From a virus, in IMG/VR virus record IMGVR_UViG_3300025015_000014, positions 32,001 through 96,000 of that record: DNA of 64,000 bases, one strand, 5' to 3'. A model generated the notes under the pieces. That model was not told where the DNA came from, ran no database searches, and worked only from the letters and a program-made list of their open reading frames with translations. Each line of letters opens with the position of its first letter. The first letter of the stretch is position 1. Shown here piece after piece: positions 57,614 through 64,000 of the stretch. The position numbers were made by a program, and so were the translations under genes.

Positions 57614-58045
57614 CTAGCTTGGTTTCCCAACCATAACCAGAATCTCTCGGGCCACGTCAAGCCCAATTTTTCCGGTCGTGTCGAGCATGACTTGACGAGA
57701 ACATTGAGCAAGCTCAAGCTCAATTTGGGCACGGGTTGTGGCATCCCCTTGTTGGTACCCCTGTAGATAGGTCGGATCATGGGTTAGCTTGGCCATGATT
57801 CCGGCATAGACTTCTCGCCGGAGGGCTTCTACCAAAAGAGCATGGGCAATATGCCGAACACCACCCCCGGCAAGCTGTCCTGCTAGTTGGGCATCTTCGG
57901 GTGTTTGGAAGTCATGGGTAGACCAAACCTTGCCCCCCTGGTTGACTAGGACGCCAACCAGGAGCTTGAAAAGTCGATACCCGTCATGTTCCCCTGTTTC
58001 CTTGAAGAGCAGGTTCAGAGGGTCACTTGCCACGGATTGCCTCAC
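57614..58045 (-). CDS. Hypothetical protein
   Basis: ORF on the coding strand; exact start uncertain. Confidence 0.5.
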   Translation of the reverse strand: MRQSVASDPLNLLFKETGEHDGYRLFKLLVGVLVNQGGKVWSTHDFQTPEDAQLAGQLAGGGVRHIAHALLVEALRREVYAGIMAKLTHDPTYLQGYQQGDATTRAQIELELAQCSRQVMLDTTGKIGLDVAREILVMVGKPS

Positions 58046-58385
58046 AAGCAGAACACCAATGCGAAGTCTTGTCCTGAATACCCCAGGCAGTCAAGGGGAT
58101 TTGAACATCCCAACCCAGGTTTGGGTTGCCACACAGAGCCTGAGTACCTGCGGGTAGCCCCCCCAAGTTGGGTTCCTCTTCGGGCGCAAGTTCCCGTAGG
58201 TGGTAATGCCAAGTGGATGTCCGGGTCTCGGCAATCACCAGTCGCTTGCTTTCTCGAACCATGCGGGCCGCCTTTGCTTTGAGTTCCTTGCCCCCCCAGA
58301 TGCAGAGTTGACCTGCCCCGTAGAAAGGCAGGAACACCAGGAGTCCAACCAAGAGAGCCGACATGGAGATGTAAAACACCGTCAT
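58023..58385 (-). CDS. Membrane-anchored zinc-finger-like hypothetical protein
   Basis: N-terminal TM segment; WHYH...ALCG...CSAC. Confidence 0.55.
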   Translation of the reverse strand: MTVFYISMSALLVGLLVFLPFYGAGQLCIWGGKELKAKAARMVRESKRLVIAETRTSTWHYHLRELAPEEEPNLGGLPAGTQALCGNPNLGWDVQIPLTAWGIQDKTSHWCSACEAIRGK

Positions 58386-58408
58386 GCTTCTACTACGGGT
58401 CTCCCGAC

Positions 58409-59995
58409 CTACCTAAGCCGTTGAACCACCGCAGTCTCAGCCGTCAGCAGAAGGGTAGCCGTGGATACGGCTGTCTCGATGACCACCTGAACTACTTGGA
58501 GGGGGTCAGGCAATATCGGGGTCTCTCCCATGTCCCGGACATGGCCACCTTCAGAAGTTGCCTCCCATCCAATCCAGCCTTGTGTTTGGGAGAGCTTGCC
58601 GAGGATCTCTACGCCCCCTCCGGCATTGACAATCAATCGGGTTGTGGGAATCTTGAGAGCTTTGGCCAGAATCAGCCACCCAGCCCGTTCTTCGGGTTCC
58701 TTTATGGAGGGATAACAGGTTTCCAGATGAAGCCCGGCTCGCAAATAAGCAATCCCACCACCAGGTAGGATGCCACTACGAAGGGCGGCCTGAACAGACC
58801 CCAGGGCATCCTCAACCCTGGCCCGTCGTTCCTTCATGGCTACTTCAGAGATCCCCCCAACTCGTAGGATAGCCAACCCACCTGAGAGCTTGGCCTTCCG
58901 TTCTCGCAATCGGTCCTTGTCATAGTCCGATGTGGCTCTTTCCTCTTCGGCTCGGAGTTGGATCAGACGTTCCTGAACCGTCTCCTGGGCCTCATCATAG
59001 GCTTCAAGCACCGTGGTTCTGGTCTTGATGGTGATCTTGCGGGCTGTGCCAAACCAAGTCTGGTCCCAAACCCGATGGTTCATTCCTGCCCGAGGATCCA
59101 CAAAGGTTGCCCCAGTCAAAGCGGCAACATCTTTCAGAAGCTCGATCCGAATGGGTCCAACACCCGACACCGGAACAGCAGAACACTTGACGACCCCTTT
59201 GGAGTTATTGACGATCATTGTGGTCAAGGCTTCACCAACGAAGGCTTCGGCAAACACCACCAGTTCGTTGCGAGGCCATTGGCTGGCTGTTTCCAGAAGG
59301 TCTTGGACATCCCCCACGGTGACCAGGGAGATTCCCAGTACAGCCACGATAGCCCCATCAATGAGGCGTTCGTTTTGATTGCCCAACAGTTCAGTAGACG
59401 CCATTCCCCCATCAAGTTCCATTCCTTCCTTGAGGTCCAACCAAGTCTCGACTGATTGACTGTCCTCAATGGCAACGGTCCCATCCTTGCCTACAGCCAT
59501 ACAGGCTTCAGCTAGATTCTCGGCGATCTCTGCATCCCCGTTACTAGCAAGCAGGGCCACTTGTTTCAACACATCCTTCTCTTGGATTGGCCGATGGAGC
59601 TTTTCCAAACAGTCTCGGGCCTCTACTGCGGCGGCTCTCACCCCCCGGATGATCCCATTGGGACTCATTCCTGCCGTGATCAGTTTGTGTCCTTCTTGGA
59701 GCAACCCGTCAGCTAACAAGGCGACAGTCGTGGTGCCATCACCTACCTGGGCATTTACTCGGAGACAGGCTTCCTTGAGAATCTGTGCCCCCAGATTCTG
59801 TGTGCGTCCCGAGAGTTCAATCTCTCGGGCAACCGTCACCCCATCCTTAGTGGCTAGCAACCCAGATAACCGATCCAGCATACAAGTGCGGCCATGCGGC
59901 CCATAGGTCACACCAACAACCCGAGCCAGTTGATGAGTCCCTTTCAAGAGTTGTTCGCGGGCTATTGCGCCCGTGAGAATCGTCTTTGCGCCCAT
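58409..59995 (-). CDS. groEL: GroEL-like chaperonin (phage-encoded, divergent)
   Basis: TYGPHGR, TKDGVTVAREI, VGDGTTT, DYDKDRLRERKAKLSGG, VEDAL, GILPGGG. Confidence 0.95.
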   Translation of the reverse strand: MGAKTILTGAIAREQLLKGTHQLARVVGVTYGPHGRTCMLDRLSGLLATKDGVTVAREIELSGRTQNLGAQILKEACLRVNAQVGDGTTTVALLADGLLQEGHKLITAGMSPNGIIRGVRAAAVEARDCLEKLHRPIQEKDVLKQVALLASNGDAEIAENLAEACMAVGKDGTVAIEDSQSVETWLDLKEGMELDGGMASTELLGNQNERLIDGAIVAVLGISLVTVGDVQDLLETASQWPRNELVVFAEAFVGEALTTMIVNNSKGVVKCSAVPVSGVGPIRIELLKDVAALTGATFVDPRAGMNHRVWDQTWFGTARKITIKTRTTVLEAYDEAQETVQERLIQLRAEEERATSDYDKDRLRERKAKLSGGLAILRVGGISEVAMKERRARVEDALGSVQAALRSGILPGGGIAYLRAGLHLETCYPSIKEPEERAGWLILAKALKIPTTRLIVNAGGGVEILGKLSQTQGWIGWEATSEGGHVRDMGETPILPDPLQVVQVVIETAVSTATLLLTAETAVVQRLR

Positions 59996-60182
59996 TGAAT
60001 CACGCCTCCTCCCCCACTCTACCCGAGGAGTTGAAATGATGGGTTGCTCTCTCTTGGTGTCCAAAACGATGACGGAACCAACCGTCAAATAATCTTATCG
60101 TGGGCAGCCCCAACCGATATTTTGATCATGACGAACACCCCAACGGTCCCATCAAAGACCAGAACTGAGGATGATCAGGGGG

Positions 60183-60788
60183 TTATCTCGCCAAATGACC
60201 AATCCAGCGGGAGGCAATCCGGTGTATTAAACGTGATCTATGGGGCGATCTTACGGTGTTATTACGACCCAATACGCTATTTTGGGAACACAAGGGGGTC
60301 TGCGAAGTGGCCCGAACCAGATGGGGGACACACAACAAACCCAACCCAGTCACGAAAGCCTCATACACAGCAAGGCGTTTCGGGTCATCCTCCCATATAG
60401 CGACTGTTGTGATGCTGGGGAACTTAGCGAGTGCTTTACGCAACACGGATGTCTTGAAAGCGGTTGTGCTACCGCCAGGGTTCAGCCGAACCAGATCAAA
60501 GTCAAGACCCTTTTGCCCTAGTAATTCCGGGACTCTCCAACGAAAGGCACTATGGTCAGGCCGACCCGTACACAACACAGCCAACACTTGTTTGTGCGCT
60601 ATGCTACGTTTGGCTTCCGCTACTGTGGTCCCTACCCACCAAGATGCTTCGGGGGTGTCCGGAACACATGGCTGGCCTAAGGATTGTTCCTCAACCCACC
60701 AGTCTTCGCCCACTCCAGGAGGCGGCTCTGGACTCCGAAACAAAGTGCCGTCGAAGTCATATAAATGGAGTTCAAGTGGTTGATACAT
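60183..60788 (-). CDS. HAD-family phosphatase (Swiss Army Knife RNA-repair-like HAD) with a C-terminal RIASRW tag
   Basis: LHLYDFDGTLFRSP, WW, LCTGR, TTAFK, IWED; LIHRIASRWI. Confidence 0.8.
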   Translation of the reverse strand: MYQPLELHLYDFDGTLFRSPEPPPGVGEDWWVEEQSLGQPCVPDTPEASWWVGTTVAEAKRSIAHKQVLAVLCTGRPDHSAFRWRVPELLGQKGLDFDLVRLNPGGSTTAFKTSVLRKALAKFPSITTVAIWEDDPKRLAVYEAFVTGLGLLCVPHLVRATSQTPLCSQNSVLGRNNTVRSPHRSRLIHRIASRWIGHLAR

Positions 60789-61257
60789 CGGACACCAGGG
60801 ACTCAAGAGCAAGACCGAAGTGGGGCATCCGGAGAACGAAAGCACGGATACGTTTCAAGAGAAACTCGTTTTCCGGGTGCCGACAACAACCACCTTGTAA
60901 CATCCGCTGATAGCGACGGAGTTCCGGATTGGCCTCGATAACCGTCAATAATTGTGGATACAGGGTTCGGGCCATCGGGTACCTACTTGGCCTCACTACT
61001 CTGCCGGAGTAAGGGTATCAGGTGAGGTCGCATTTCGGGTCGGGTACGGGCGATTTCGAGCAAGGCTTTTCGAAGCATGGAAACCTCCTAGAAAACGGAA
61101 CGGATAGGCTGTCTACCGAAACACGGCTTAGCCGAATCGGGTTTCGGGTAGCATAGGTGCCCGCCCACTTACCGGCCGGTGGGGATTCAAGGGGGTCTGG
61201 CACAAGTCGGACTCCCATCGGAAGCCGAATCCACAAAGGATTCGGTTAGACCGGAAC

Positions 61258-61292
61258 AAAGTTCTTGACACCCGATTCCACGGGGGTAAGAT
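61258..61292 (+). promoter_or_regulatory. Sigma70-type promoter of the tRNA array
   Basis: TTGACA (61265-70), 16-nt spacer, TAAGAT (61287-92). Confidence 0.75.
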
Positions 61293-61300
61293 AGGGAGCG

Positions 61301-61402
61301 ATGGGAACCTTGAACCAGTTATCCTCACGAAACACGCTACGGCAGAGTTGGTTGCTTACCACCTCCCTGTCGTATCGCTTTACGGCGGGGGCAACCGGGT
61401 AG
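61301..61402 (+). CDS. Putative 33-aa leader peptide MGTLNQLSSRNTLRQSWLLTTSLSYRFTAGATG
   Basis: ATG 8 nt after the -10 box; stop 25 nt before a strong terminator; codons match the downstream tRNAs. Below the ORF track cutoff. Confidence 0.7.
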   Translation: MGTLNQLSSRNTLRQSWLLTTSLSYRFTAGATG

Positions 61403-61426
61403 AGGCTCAAGACAGAGCAAATAGAC

Positions 61427-61470
61427 CCGAAGCCCCTCCCGGAAACGAACCGAGAGGGGCTTCGGTGTTT
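61427..61470 (+). terminator. Intrinsic terminator (attenuator)
   Basis: Perfect 12-bp stem CCGAAGCCCCTC / GAGGGGCTTCGG followed by TGTTT. Confidence 0.75.
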
Positions 61471-61569
61471 ATGGGGGTTCGGTGGGTTGATGACTTACCG
61501 ACCCCAGGTTCCGTGAAAAGTAGTCGATCACGATTTGGGTGGGGACGGTCACCAACCGACCCCACCTGT

Positions 61570-61650
61570 GCCGGGATGGCGTAATGGCAGCCGCGCATGG
61601 TTCAGGACCATGTGTTGAAAGACGTAGGGGTTCAAGTCCCCTTCCCGGTA
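61570..61650 (+). tRNA. tRNA-Leu(CAG)
   Basis: Cloverleaf; CATGG-TT CAG GA-CCATG; variable arm; GTTCAAGTCC. Confidence 0.92.
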
Positions 61651-61714
61651 CTCAGGTACGGCAAACCGCAGTGACAATGCCATAAAGTCACAACCCTTTG
61701 GTCCGTACCTCTTT

Positions 61715-61804
61715 GGGCAAGCGGCGGAGTTGGAGGTGCCGCAGCGGACTGTAAATCCGTTCCCTTTTGGGTTAACACTGGGGGTTCGAATCCCTCCTTG
61801 CCCA
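61715..61804 (+). tRNA. tRNA-Tyr(GTA)
   Basis: GCGGA-CT GTA AA-TCCGT; long variable arm; GTTCGAATCC. Confidence 0.92.
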
Positions 61805-61815
61805 CTGTTCCTGAT

Positions 61816-61890
61816 ACGCCCGTAGCTCAACGGATTCAGAGCAATGGCCTACGAAGCCAGAGGTTCCCGGTTCGAATCCGGGCGGGCGTA
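61816..61890 (+). tRNA. tRNA-Arg(ACG)
   Basis: TGGC-CT ACG AA-GCCA; GTTCGAATCC. Confidence 0.93.
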
Positions 61891-61895
61891 CTAAA

Positions 61896-61980
61896 GGAGA
61901 GATGGCCGAGCGGTCGAAGGCGGCGGTCTTGAAAATCGCTGGGTTTAAAAGCCCCGGGGGTTCGAATCCCTCTCTCTCCG
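61896..61980 (+). tRNA. tRNA-Ser(TGA)
   Basis: GCGGT-CT TGA AA-ATCGC; long variable arm. Confidence 0.93.
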
Positions 61981-62115
61981 CAAAGAGCCAGAAAGAAAAA
62001 CCGGGAACCAGATGGGGAGGGCGACACGAACCGTCAAGGGGCTGGCTGGTTCCCGGTGTGCCCCATATCACCTATGGCGTACTACGTTTGGGTCTGTGAC
62101 AGGTACAGAAAGATC

Positions 62116-62144
62116 TTGTGCGGAAAGCGGCTGGGGTGTACACT
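62116..62144 (+). promoter_or_regulatory. Internal promoter for a leaderless endonuclease mRNA
   Basis: TTGTGC-17nt-TACACT, with ATG 6 nt downstream at 62151. Confidence 0.5.
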
Positions 62145-62150
62145 CTGACC

Positions 62151-62585
62151 ATGAGGCTTGAACACCACACCAAAACCAAAGGAGATAAGGGGCTGGGCTT
62201 CGTAATTGCTGCTTTCTTGGGAGCAGGTTTCCAAGTTGCTCTTCCACTCAGCGAACATTTGCCCTTTGATCTAATTGCCATTTCCGGGAAAGCCCTCAAG
62301 AAGGTATCGGTAAAGTATAGATCCGCAGTAAAGGGTTCTGTAGAAATTGCTCTTCGGGGAGTTTGGAGCAATCAACAAGGAACACATACGACTTTTCTGC
62401 AACGCGGCGATGTGGATGCGCATGCTTTGTACTGTCCAGATACAAAATTATGCTACTTCGTTCGGGATGCTGAAATCACTTCCAGGCGGGGTTTCAAATT
62501 GCGCCTAGAAGAACCCAAAACCCCACACCCCCAATCTCGTCCTGCTCACCTGTACACGGATCCAACGCGCCTTTTCATTTCTTAG
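62151..62585 (+). CDS. Free-standing PD-(D/E)XK homing endonuclease (I-Ssp6803I / PDDEXK_5-like)
   Basis: HTKTKGDKG..V...L..GFQVALP.SE..PFDLI...KVSVKY...VD...YCP. Confidence 0.8.
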   Translation: MRLEHHTKTKGDKGLGFVIAAFLGAGFQVALPLSEHLPFDLIAISGKALKKVSVKYRSAVKGSVEIALRGVWSNQQGTHTTFLQRGDVDAHALYCPDTKLCYFVRDAEITSRRGFKLRLEEPKTPHPQSRPAHLYTDPTRLFIS

Positions 62586-62671
62586 GAGGGGTCGCCTAGT
62601 CCGGCTGTGGGCACCTGATTGCTAATCAGGCAGACAGAAATGTCTCGTGGGTTCGAATCCCACTCCCTCCG
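62585..62671 (+). tRNA. tRNA-Ser(GCT)
   Basis: CCTGA-TT GCT AA-TCAGG; long variable arm. Confidence 0.92.
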
Positions 62672-62699
62672 CTCTTTTTGCAGGACAGGAGAAAATAAT

Positions 62700-62788
62700 G
62701 CGAGCATGGCGTAACTTTGGTAGCCGCGCAAGGTCGAGAGCCTTGTCCCCAAAAAACGGGGGTGGGGGTTCGAGTCCCCCTGCTCGCA
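62700..62788 (+). tRNA. tRNA-Leu(GAG) with a non-canonical anticodon loop
   Basis: CAAGG-TC GAG AG-CCTTG (C33); acceptor stem GCGAGCA/TGCTCGC. Confidence 0.8.
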
Positions 62789-62892
62789 CTACGGGTAACC
62801 GGGTTCGAATCCCGGCTTGGTTGATGGGGGTGACGGGTCAATCAAGGTCATGGTGACCCCAGAGGTTCGATTCCTCTACTTGGCAACCGTAG
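62789..62892 (+). ncRNA. Y-RNA-like permuted tRNA mimic with two T-arms
   Basis: Closing stem CTACGG/CCGTAG; T-arm CCGGG-TTCGAAT-CCCGG; 9-bp loop-closed stem; GTCA-TGG-TGAC; second T-arm AGAGG-TTCGATT-CCTCT. Confidence 0.55.
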
Positions 62893-62973
62893 TCAAGTCA
62901 AATGGGTAGGAATAGGCTCTCGCTAGAGAGGGCCGCCCGACTGGTGGGAATCCAGTCAACAAGAACCCCCAAT

Positions 62974-63046
62974 GGCTCGTTAGCTCTGATGGTCAGAGCG
63001 TTCCGTTGAAGCCGGAAAGAATCCTGTTCGATCCAGGAACGAGCCA
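62974..63046 (+). tRNA. tRNA-Phe(GAA)
   Basis: TTCCG-TT GAA GC-CGGAA; acceptor stem GGCTCGT/ACGAGCC. Confidence 0.88.
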
Positions 63047-63056
63047 CCCTTTCCTT

Positions 63057-63146
63057 GGAAGAACGCCGGACATTGGTGGGCCGGGCCTGTCTCGAAAGCA
63101 GGTTCCCGTAATACACGGGATGCGAGTTCGATTCTCGCTTCTTCCG
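63057..63146 (+). tRNA. tRNA-Ser(CGA)
   Basis: CCTGT-CT CGA AA-GCAGG; long variable arm. Confidence 0.88.
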
Positions 63147-63198
63147 CTTGGGGACTGGGACATGCAATTCAATCCTCTTTTCCTGCCAGCCCCATTTT

Positions 63199-63291
63199 GG
63201 AGGATAGCCGGATATCGGTTCGCCGGGCACGCCTGGAAAGCGTGTGGGTTCCGTAATAGGGATCCTGCGGGTTCAATTCCCGTGTCCTCCG
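63199..63291 (+). tRNA. tRNA-Ser(GGA)
   Basis: CACGC-CT GGA AA-GCGTG; long variable arm. Confidence 0.9.
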
Positions 63292-63372
63292 CCGAAACAA
63301 CTTAGGCTTAGTTCCCCCACCTCTTGTGTAGTAAGATAGAACCCGCCCAGATGAGGCGGAAAGGGGGATCTA

Positions 63373-63939
63373 GTGCGAATGATAAGGCTGCTCCTTTTGG
63401 TTTCCGCTCTGTGCTGCACAACCGCGAAACAGACGAACGTGAAAGCAGAGCCCGTGAAGGAACATGAACCCTCCAAAGCGCTCGTTGCTCTGTTTGACCA
63501 TTGGGCAGATTTGCAAAGATTTCCCCCCGAAACAAGGCTATATCTACGGTTTCGCTTTCCACATTCTGACGGGGAAATACGCGAATTTCAGGACTTTGTT
63601 GCCGCTTTCGATTGTGCAGATTGTTCAGACGAAGAGATGGAACAAACAACAGTACAATTCGATAAAGCACAAGAGCGGTTTAAAACGGGTCAGTCTTTTA
63701 CCCGCAACTTTCCTCAAATCGTAGCCTTCTTGCAGCGAAAGGAACCAAGCCGAATGGCATCCCTCTTTGGTCTAGCAGATGCTTTGGCTAAGGAAGCTTC
63801 TTTCTACCGCTATGCTCTGTGTGTTTCCAAGACAGATGAGTCGTGGCAAGAACGTCTCGGTTGGTCAGCCAGTAAGTCGGACAACATTACTCCCCTTGTG
63901 GGTTCCTGTAATGAAATACTTACAAGGTCTAGCGACTAA
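63373..63939 (+). CDS. Putative secreted/lipoprotein-like hypothetical protein
   Basis: Signal-like MIRLLLLVSALCC; visibly more AT-rich than the flanks. Confidence 0.55.
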   Translation: MRMIRLLLLVSALCCTTAKQTNVKAEPVKEHEPSKALVALFDHWADLQRFPPETRLYLRFRFPHSDGEIREFQDFVAAFDCADCSDEEMEQTTVQFDKAQERFKTGQSFTRNFPQIVAFLQRKEPSRMASLFGLADALAKEASFYRYALCVSKTDESWQERLGWSASKSDNITPLVGSCNEILTRSSD

Positions 63940-63963
63940 ATCTAGTGTGCGTCTTTCTGCGCT

Positions 63964-64000
63964 GGGAGTGAAGGCTTGAGGGTAAGCCGCCGGCCTCCAA
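63964..64000 (+). tRNA. Partial tRNA-Trp(CCA), truncated by the window end
   Basis: GGGAGTG, D-arm GGCT...AGCC, then CCGGC-CT CCA A; the 3' half is not visible. Confidence 0.55.

Follow-up and report, generated by a model that had tools for sequence, protein, structure and literature searches.

Introduction

How does a phage that carries its own tRNA genes decide when to transcribe them? This question is raised by a 64,000-nucleotide stretch of viral DNA (the window), bases 32001-96000 of the 132,786-base virus record IMGVR_UViG_3300025015_000014, in which a promoter, a short open reading frame (ORF) and a strong hairpin precede an array of tRNA genes. Given that the 132,786 bases are rated 25% complete by CheckV, the record is taken to be a fragment of a huge phage. 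To our knowledge, the timing and dosing of phages' own tRNAs are largely unknown. Compensation for codon usage is one usual account of why phages carry tRNAs. Another is the replacement of tRNAs cut by host defences, according to the available part of the cited text (PMC12409363).

The initial annotation of this stretch, made from its letters alone, proposed that the short ORF encodes a leader peptide whose codons match the tRNAs of the array. The comparative analysis reported here indicates that the element exists, is conserved and exceeds chance by far, and we put at about three in four the probability that it is a ribosome-mediated (leader-peptide) transcription attenuator controlling a block of phage tRNA genes. 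Positions are those of the window unless they are marked as genome positions of the record or belong to a named locus.

Results

Codon match between the leader and the tRNA array

The record holds 49 tRNA genes and one transfer-messenger RNA (tmRNA), as called by ARAGORN. The plus-strand array (array 1) has 17 of these tRNAs between genome positions 93570 and 99554, the first nine of which are inside the window, while the minus-strand array (array 2) has 32, between genome positions 108897 and 132172, and runs past the end of the contig. The nine tRNAs in the window carry the anticodons given in the initial annotation, in the order Leu-CAG, Tyr-GTA, Arg-ACG, Ser-TGA, Ser-GCT, Leu-GAG, Phe-GAA, Ser-CGA and Ser-GGA. 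A further tRNA across the window end was missed by ARAGORN and matches the Rfam tRNA model with 52.9 bits (63964-64036); the anticodon read from its sequence is CCA, and the partial tRNA-Trp reported earlier at this place is therefore real. Beyond the window, array 1 continues to genome position 99554 with Phe, Leu-TAA, Leu-TAG, Arg-TCG, Leu-CAA, Thr-CGT, Thr-GGT and Arg-CCG. Its isotypes are only Leu (five anticodons), Ser (four), Arg (three), Thr (two), Tyr, Phe and Trp, and nearly all the remaining isotypes are located in the minus-strand array. From the leader codons it had been predicted that tRNAs for Thr, Leu, Asn and Gln would be found past position 64000; the Thr (CGT, GGT) and Leu (CAA, TAA, TAG) tRNAs are indeed there in array 1, while those for Asn and Gln belong to the other array.

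The promoter TTGACA-16-TAAGAT and the 33-codon ORF described in the initial annotation are both present ahead of array 1 (Table 1), and the ATG sits 8 nt past the -10 hexamer, which would make the mRNA nearly leaderless. The promoter is the sole sigma-70-like match in 60500-64000 and, given that shuffled sequences give 1.4 sites in 3.5 kb, it is not above chance when taken alone. A close relative obtained from four public DNA runs has 43 differing letters across 61158-61566; among the differences listed, which reach to 61283, seven fall in the spacer (61272-61283) and none in the -35 hexamer.

The codon match was evaluated with standard wobble rules, which are assumed, and with the codon usage of the 82 long ORFs of the phage as background. 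Cognate tRNAs in array 1 exist for 23/32 leader codons, where the background fraction is 0.33 (P ~5e-6), and the leader covers 17/17 distinct anticodons of array 1, where the average in simulations is 9.1 (P 1.5e-5 in one run and 4.5e-5 in another). The match is therefore far better than that of shuffled or codon-usage controls, and the earlier claim that every tRNA of the array has a codon in the leader extends to the part of the array that was out of view when it was made: seven of the 17 covered anticodons (Leu-TAA, Leu-TAG, Leu-CAA, Arg-TCG, Arg-CCG, Thr-CGT and Thr-GGT) occur only beyond the window. The run TCC CTG TCG TAT CGC TTT consists, as noted before, of six consecutive codons with a different array tRNA for each. 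Among the 855 ORFs of 25-45 codons in the six frames of the whole record, only the leader covers 17 anticodons, and the next best covers 15.

Conservation of the module in related phages

Relatives were found with an alignment built from homologues of the HAD protein encoded nearby, the closest of which is 89% identical (P0001, Logan); the single HAD protein used as query retrieved no relative. The search of viral sequences with this alignment gave 80 loci, 14 with tRNAs, and four viral loci (L073, L074, L075 and L126) share the divergent Leu/Ser/Tyr/Phe/Trp/Thr array. The search of metagenomes gave another 80 loci, of which 16 have tRNAs and 14 of these an equivalent array. All four viral and 14 metagenome loci carry the same module, and the removal of duplicates leaves 13 distinct leaders, that of the window and 12 others.

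The module stands before the first tRNA and consists of an A-rich stretch, TTGAC(A/T), a -10 element (T/C)AnnnT at 16-17 nt, an ORF and a strong hairpin. In the loci with an equivalent array the ORF has 28-42 codons and the hairpin lies 13-32 nt past the stop codon. Both promoter elements are kept in 13/13 leaders, as is an in-frame ATG or GTG start. A Shine-Dalgarno stretch of the GGAG type is seen by eye in several leaders, and those of the window and L186 are nearly leaderless. The first gene after the terminator is tRNA-Leu in 13/13, 38-168 nt downstream. The conservation of promoter, leader ORF and terminator in related phages, anticipated in the initial annotation, was thus borne out. 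A covariance model of the ORF 3' end and the terminator matches at full length 14/16 of the metagenome loci that bear tRNAs and 0/64 of those without tRNAs. In other huge-phage clades with the HAD gene (L119, L132) no such leader was found ahead of the tRNA arrays, which makes the module a trait of this clade and not of tRNA arrays generally.

Two search handles taken from the leader itself were tried and rejected. The stem pattern of the hairpin returned 70 viral contigs whose BLAST likeness is limited to the hairpin, that is, chance terminators, and a leader-specific DNA pattern returned 10 stretches, three of them true and all three on contigs already known through the HAD gene. Among cultured phages, the DNA search gave matches to tRNA-Ser only and no cultured model was found; the HAD protein search for a cultured relative returned three uncultured records only. 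No RNA run is listed among the public runs that contain the stretch.

The leader of a different phage (L246:17350-17560, minus strand) has a promoter and a 42-codon ORF before a mixed tRNA array, and the stop codon of this ORF lies within the terminator hairpin itself. Such a layout would offer a different route by which translation could be coupled to termination.

What the leaders have in common is composition rather than peptide sequence. Peptide identity among leaders is 23-88% with a median of 34%, and 24-36% between the window and the others. From codon 2 to the antiterminator, 252/331 residues (76%) are Leu, Ser, Thr, Tyr, Phe or Trp, versus 28.6% in the long ORFs of the phage; with Arg and Glu added, the count for the same zone is 291/331. 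In the last 6-10 codons only 15/92 residues are of the six types. The anticodons are completely covered in seven of the eight loci whose arrays look complete: besides the window, these are G001 (17/17), G004 (18/18), G002 (14/14), L187 (16/16), L233 (15/15) and L212 (16/16), and in G003 the coverage is 14/15, with Ile-TAT missed. For arrays that are cut short, or possibly so, the values are 14/14 (L200), 9/9 (L221), 6/6 (L186) and 3/3 (L176), and for L211, with 10 tRNAs called, 8/10.

Second arrays and codon covariation

Four relatives were available as whole records, among them G001, which is complete with 435,804 bases and terminal repeats, and G002, with 381 kb. In both, the other array is headed by a leader region of its own (leader 2), in which a TTGACA-16-TGnTAnnnT promoter precedes an ORF of either 50 or 48 codons, followed by a terminator. 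This array carries Asn, Asp, Pro, Lys, Val, Arg, Gly, Ile, Met, Ala, Gln, Cys, His and Glu tRNAs, and the leader-2 peptides are rich in Ala, Gly, Val, Pro, Arg, Asn, Asp, His and Lys, with only 8/49 and 8/47 residues from the group of Leu, Ser, Thr, Tyr, Phe and Trp. Leader 2 covers 27/29 (P 0.012) and 18/20 (P 0.03) of the anticodons of its own array. Array-2 codons are depleted in leader 1, which covers only 9-13 of the 20-29 array-2 anticodons. No leader for the second array was found within the contig of G004, where this array is partial.

The initial annotation had suggested that leader codons might vary together with tRNA content. This was observed across the eight arrays that look complete, for anticodons that are variably present: the leader contains the primary codon in 68/80 cases where the tRNA is present and in 32/56 where it is absent (Fisher P 3e-4), counts that rest on ARAGORN, which misses some tRNAs. 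The second leaders, written in the amino acids of their own arrays, point the same way. For Glu-CTC/GAG and Thr-TGT/ACA, tRNA and codon agree in 8/8 arrays; array 1 of the window is without the Glu-CTC and Thr-TGT tRNAs, and its leader is without GAG and ACA codons. In G002, Ser-TGA is in array 2, and TCA codons are in leader 2 and not in leader 1.

Pairings and predicted switch behaviour

The hairpin at 61427-61465 has a 12-bp stem and three inner pairs and reaches -36 kcal/mol (z -5.9), which confirms the 12-bp terminator stem of the initial annotation, with a tail that is a weak U-tract. That annotation also described the classic exclusive pairings, in which segment 2 pairs either with segment 1 (1:2) or, as antiterminator, with segment 3, the terminator 5' arm (2:3). 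This holds in the window, where the minimum-free-energy fold of 61293-61480 (-81.1 kcal/mol, z -3.9) contains both 1:2 (61365-61374 with 61381-61390) and the terminator, and where the 2:3 duplex is the best partner of the terminator 5' arm (-26.6 kcal/mol, equalled by 7/500 and 2/300 shuffles); the position of 1:2, as discussed below, is not conserved. The best 1:2 duplex of the window has -25.1 kcal/mol and is equalled by 12/300 shuffles. Segment 2 spans the last seven codons of the leader plus most of the stop codon.

Over the whole upstream transcript, the best partner of the 5' arm falls within the last 33 nt of the ORF in 13/13 leaders of the first type and in 2/2 of the second. In these 15 leaders the 3' end of the partner falls 1-15 nt short of the end of the stop codon and the duplex has -12 to -30 kcal/mol; at most 15/300 shuffles match it in 13/15, with L073 and L075 weak. 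The pairings between each ORF end and its own terminator arm are stronger than permuted ones (P 1.7e-4 for 12 sequences, L200 being left out as a duplicate of L074). In a model-based alignment of the 13 sequences, the terminator shows compensatory changes at 10/15 pairs (0/500 shuffles). For the antiterminator in fixed register, 76.9% of cells pair versus 72.5% when shuffled (3/500) and 45-57% when slid, and seven cells are compensatory (8/500 shuffles).

The nascent RNA of the 13 leaders was folded up to the terminator loop, with the footprint of a ribosome masked codon by codon. With the ribosome at early codons, the terminator 5' arm is sequestered with a probability of 0.6-0.8 in most leaders; once the last 8-10 codons or the stop codon are occupied by the ribosome, the arm is freed and this value falls to 0.2-0.4, again in most leaders. 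In these models the masked folds follow the logic of attenuation, in which a finished leader leads to termination and an early stall to read-through.

The mechanism that we propose would start at the conserved sigma-70-type promoter, with a ribosome translating the 33-codon leader. If all codons were decoded promptly, the ribosome at the last codons or the stop would cover segment 2, the terminator would form and transcription would halt ahead of the first tRNA gene. If a missing aminoacyl-tRNA stalled the ribosome early, segment 2 would be free to pair with the emerging terminator 5' arm, and transcription would read through into the array. Given that the leader has at least one codon per isoacceptor of the array, it would behave as an OR-gate: a shortage of any one isoacceptor would turn the whole block on, and restored supply would turn it off. 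Leader translation, stalling, read-through and the cause of the shortage are inferred, and codon-usage demand, host shut-off and host anticodon nucleases are candidate causes, the cleavage of host tRNAs being a purely conjectural trigger.

Between the terminator and the first tRNA, a conserved motif, CTTTGA(C/A)AA(G/C)TGAA(T/C)AG, was observed in 12 relatives and in both leader-2 regions (for example L074:7365-7381, minus strand), and the window has a degenerate form of it at 61511-61530. No further copies were seen in the rest of the loci or of the window. The possibility that CTTTGACAAsTGAAtAG is a general promoter of these phages was rejected, as it occurs only at the heads of arrays and at chance level in the window.

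Table 1. Coordinates of the leader region and of the tRNA genes that follow it in the window
Feature	Position	Strand	Basis or remark
Promoter: A-rich upstream stretch, -35 TTGACA (61265-61270), 16-nt spacer, -10 TAAGAT (61287-61292)	61255-61292	+	10/12 consensus matches
Leader ORF, 33 codons, MGTLNQLSSRNTLRQSWLLTTSLSYRFTAGATG and stop	61301-61402	+	ORF call; putative sensing zone about codons 2-24
Segment 1 (CCCTGTCGTA), possible anti-antiterminator strand	61365-61374	+	Pairs with 61381-61390 in the minimum-free-energy fold
Segment 2 (ACGGCGGGGGCAACCGGGTA), predicted antiterminator 5' strand	61382-61401	+	Best partner of the terminator 5' arm
Terminator hairpin (core 61427-61438 with 61454-61465; outer A/U extension), then TGTTTAT	61421-61472	+	Fold, covariation
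Segment 3, terminator 5' arm	61424-61442	+	Antiterminator pairing
Hairpin 2 nt before the first tRNA, possible processing element	61537-61567	+	Fold
Nine tRNA genes of array 1	61570-63293	+	tRNA calls with anticodons
tRNA-Trp (CCA), 5' part	63964-64000 (ends at window-equivalent 64036)	+	Rfam tRNA, 52.9 bits

Weighing of the attenuator against other explanations

Several observations weigh against the attenuator as described above. On the side of the codons, 9/32 are not cognate to array 1 (Asn twice, Gln twice, and Gly and Ala in segment 2), the two AAC and two CAG codons being non-cognate because the tRNAs for Asn and Gln belong to the other array. When the amino acids are fixed and the synonymous codons redrawn, full coverage has a P of 0.02-0.16 per leader 1, which places the main signal at the level of the amino acid, and tuning at the level of the isoacceptor is only suggested by the sequences. 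The 13 leaders are related, and for this reason their simulated P values of coverage, from 5e-6 to 0.04 per leader, are not independent. It should also be considered that the wobble rules are assumed and that ARAGORN misses some tRNAs, as it did with Trp here. On the side of the RNA, the position of the 1:2 helix is not conserved, and at most 16/300 shuffles match it in only 6/13 leaders. A stall at the Tyr, Arg and Phe codons (25-27), near segment 2, frees segment 2 only partly. The kinetic fold without a ribosome is already antiterminated (0.65 in the window), unlike in trp, so that the switch may be simpler than that of trp. The U-tract of the window, TGTTTAT, is weak, and six relatives have U-runs of 5-7. 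Control by the terminator could also be bypassed: the relatives have between terminator and first tRNA a TTGACA-containing motif that is a possible promoter, albeit one that lacks a -10 and is present only in degenerate form in the window, and protein genes within the array may carry their own promoters.

Some of the points on the RNA would fit a leader that senses a general slowing of translation (few ribosomes, antibiotics or host shut-off), with the roster of codons being secondary. An antiterminator that forms without a ribosome in the kinetic folds and a weak 1:2 helix are both compatible with such a sensor, as is the induction of the Anabaena trn array by translational stress of a general kind, described in two published accounts (PMC8421152, PMC10272220). 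What this explanation leaves unaccounted for is that each leader is written in the amino acids of its own array, that all anticodons are covered and that codons follow the gain and loss of tRNAs. We consider it unlikely, and the least improbable of the alternatives.

The small ORF could instead be an independent gene for a micro-protein, with the very stable hairpin as its own terminator and with the array starting downstream, for example from the CTTTGACAA motif, given the conserved TTGACA-containing motif present at this place in 12 relatives. Against this, composition is conserved and peptide sequence poorly so, with no Pfam family for the peptides: a scan of 10/13 leader peptides at E up to 10 gave no leader family and one irrelevant weak match to a zinc finger. 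The complementarity of the ORF 3' end to the terminator 5' arm in 15/15 leaders also speaks against it, as does the motif, which has no -10, takes a degenerate form in the window and does not recur as a promoter of the phage. For these reasons, this explanation is quite improbable.

Still less credit is given to a structured RNA element for processing, stability or protein binding, with the ORF and the codon match as by-products of G+C-rich pairing. The pairing segments are strongly conserved in DNA, and an ACC-ACC motif is able to pair with GGTGG. Against this stand an in-frame start kept in 13/13 leaders although their length varies from 28 to 42 codons and a Shine-Dalgarno-like stretch in several; the enriched residues are outside the conserved pairing segment, leader 2 has another composition with the same layout, and there is no Rfam family at the leader. 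When 58000-64000 was scanned with Rfam at E up to 1, no T-box or other cis-regulatory family was found; the 16 matches listed are tRNA-type ones (tRNA, tRNA-Sec) to the nine tRNA genes and seven that are far under the cut-offs of their families, and none is in 61100-61569.

Although Ser, Leu, Arg and Thr codons are common and shuffles give about one promoter-like match, a chance coincidence of ORF, hairpin and codon match is refuted by the simulated P of ~1e-5, by the single ORF in 855 of the same genome that covers all 17 anticodons and by the conservation of the module in 13 distinct sequences.

The ribosome-mediated attenuator thus remains the preferred reading. With somewhat less assurance than for this mechanism, we also think it probable that huge phages across this clade run their tRNA genes as translation-feedback operons under such roster leaders, with about one codon per isoacceptor, and would switch on exactly the block that is short, for example after the action of host anticodon nucleases or tRNA shut-off.

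Other features of the region

To the left of the leader, the genes on the minus strand are those of a HAD_SAK_1 phosphatase (60183-60788) and a chaperonin. The leader thus lies in an intergenic region between divergent genes, and no upstream plus-strand gene ends at the hairpin. The phosphatase (PF10307, E 8.7e-18), of a family found in RNA-repair gene neighbourhoods, is conserved across the clade as the divergent neighbour of array 1, and the alignment of homologues suggests that it starts at ATG 60788 rather than at GTG 60845. Two small minus-strand ORFs (31 and 74 amino acids) occupy 60772-61078, between the HAD gene and the leader promoter; the 31-residue ORF has a strong AGGAGG site at 61085-61090. 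Upstream of both, a motif ATAGG..T.TACCGA (about 61103-61120) is found again in relatives, and this may be a divergent promoter region.

A consensus scan rates 61427-61465 as terminator-like on the minus strand only, with G-T pairs closing the inner mismatch and the tail GTCTATTTGC; no minus-strand gene enters this hairpin from the right. Stable hairpins of different sequence end 2-5 nt before the first tRNA in the window, L074, L073 and L212, and may be a processing signal.

In five genomes (the whole record, G000, and G001-G004), the tRNAs are split by isotype between two convergent arrays. Array 1 holds all the tRNAs with a long variable arm (Leu, Ser and Tyr), plus Phe, Trp and most Thr, array 2 holds the others, and the few that shift between arrays are Ser-TGA, Thr-TGT, Glu-CTC and Arg tRNAs. 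Several other genes are found within the arrays. A gene for a PD-(D/E)XK endonuclease is inside array 1 (62118-62585, plus strand, PF11645, E 9.5e-24), G001 has between the leader-2 terminator and array 2 an ORF that reads as an HNH-type endonuclease from its sequence only, and another endonuclease-like ORF precedes tRNA-Ala at the end of the record; these genes look like homing endonucleases riding along. Between Leu-GAG and Phe-GAA, at 62789-62972, there is tRNA-like debris with two T-arm-like stretches and no tRNA call. The tmRNA of the record is inside array 2, beyond the window (genome 125192-125567, minus strand, tag ANDNIEGERMARAA), and that of G004 is inside array 1 (L166:4383-4752).

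Discussion

Leader-peptide attenuators are well known from enterobacteria, where they include trp, his, leu and pheA as well as the multivalent thr (Thr and Ile) and ilvGMEDA (Ile, Leu and Val). The phage element has in common with these a short ORF close to the promoter and rich in regulatory codons, an intrinsic terminator ahead of the genes under control, a predicted antiterminator, set by the ribosome, that competes for the terminator 5' arm, and a stop codon sited so that the finishing ribosome would block the antiterminator. The phage element differs in that it would regulate tRNA genes and not biosynthetic enzymes, and in that its leader draws on 6-8 amino acids and about 14-18 isoacceptors, most of them represented by one or a few codons instead of by runs of a single codon. 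Its 1:2 helix is weak or variable, and its output, tRNA, would feed directly back on the quantity that is sensed. The 10/13 peptides compared with Pfam showed no sequence relation to known families of leader peptides.

In the pheST attenuator, a leader with Phe codons controls phenylalanyl-tRNA synthetase. This is the same kind of control of a component of the translation apparatus, as opposed to amino-acid synthesis, in a host system that involves one amino acid and a synthetase, whereas here the genes are phage tRNA genes. T-box riboswitches also sense the status of tRNA and choose between terminator and antiterminator before translation-related genes, but they bind uncharged tRNA directly, independently of translation and through a conserved fold, of which Rfam finds no match here.

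The nearest published system that was found is the trn operon of Anabaena sp. PCC 7120, which, according to the available parts of its two descriptions, has 26 tRNA genes that are silent until translational stress (PMC8421152) and is repressed by the RHH protein TrcR (PMC10272220). It shares with the proposed phage system an accessory tRNA array whose default state is off and which is induced once translation suffers; the mechanism is a different one, with a protein repressor at the promoter. In the available text of PMC8421152 there are no occurrences of 'attenuat', 'leader peptide' or 'terminator', and in that of the huge-phage survey of Al-Shayeb 2020 (PMC7162821), supplements aside, none of 'attenuat', 'leader' or 'terminator'. 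Full-text literature searches found no account of leader-peptide attenuation of tRNA genes.

If confirmed, the attenuator would be the first of the leader-peptide kind to control tRNA genes, and a mechanism known from textbooks would gain a new class of target genes. The limitation of tRNAs during infection would become testable by a simple reporter, and the leaders would be natural multi-input codon sensors for synthetic biology. For an uncultured phage the comparative signal is unusually clean, with 13 leaders, two types of array and covariation of codons with tRNAs. For the phages themselves, the leader would be a built-in sensor of defences that target tRNAs, through which the phage would gauge decoding codon by codon, and a direct homeostatic loop in which the sensed quantity is the decoding of the codons read by its own tRNAs. 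Such a loop also suggests a possible reason why these phages sort their tRNAs by isotype into separate arrays.

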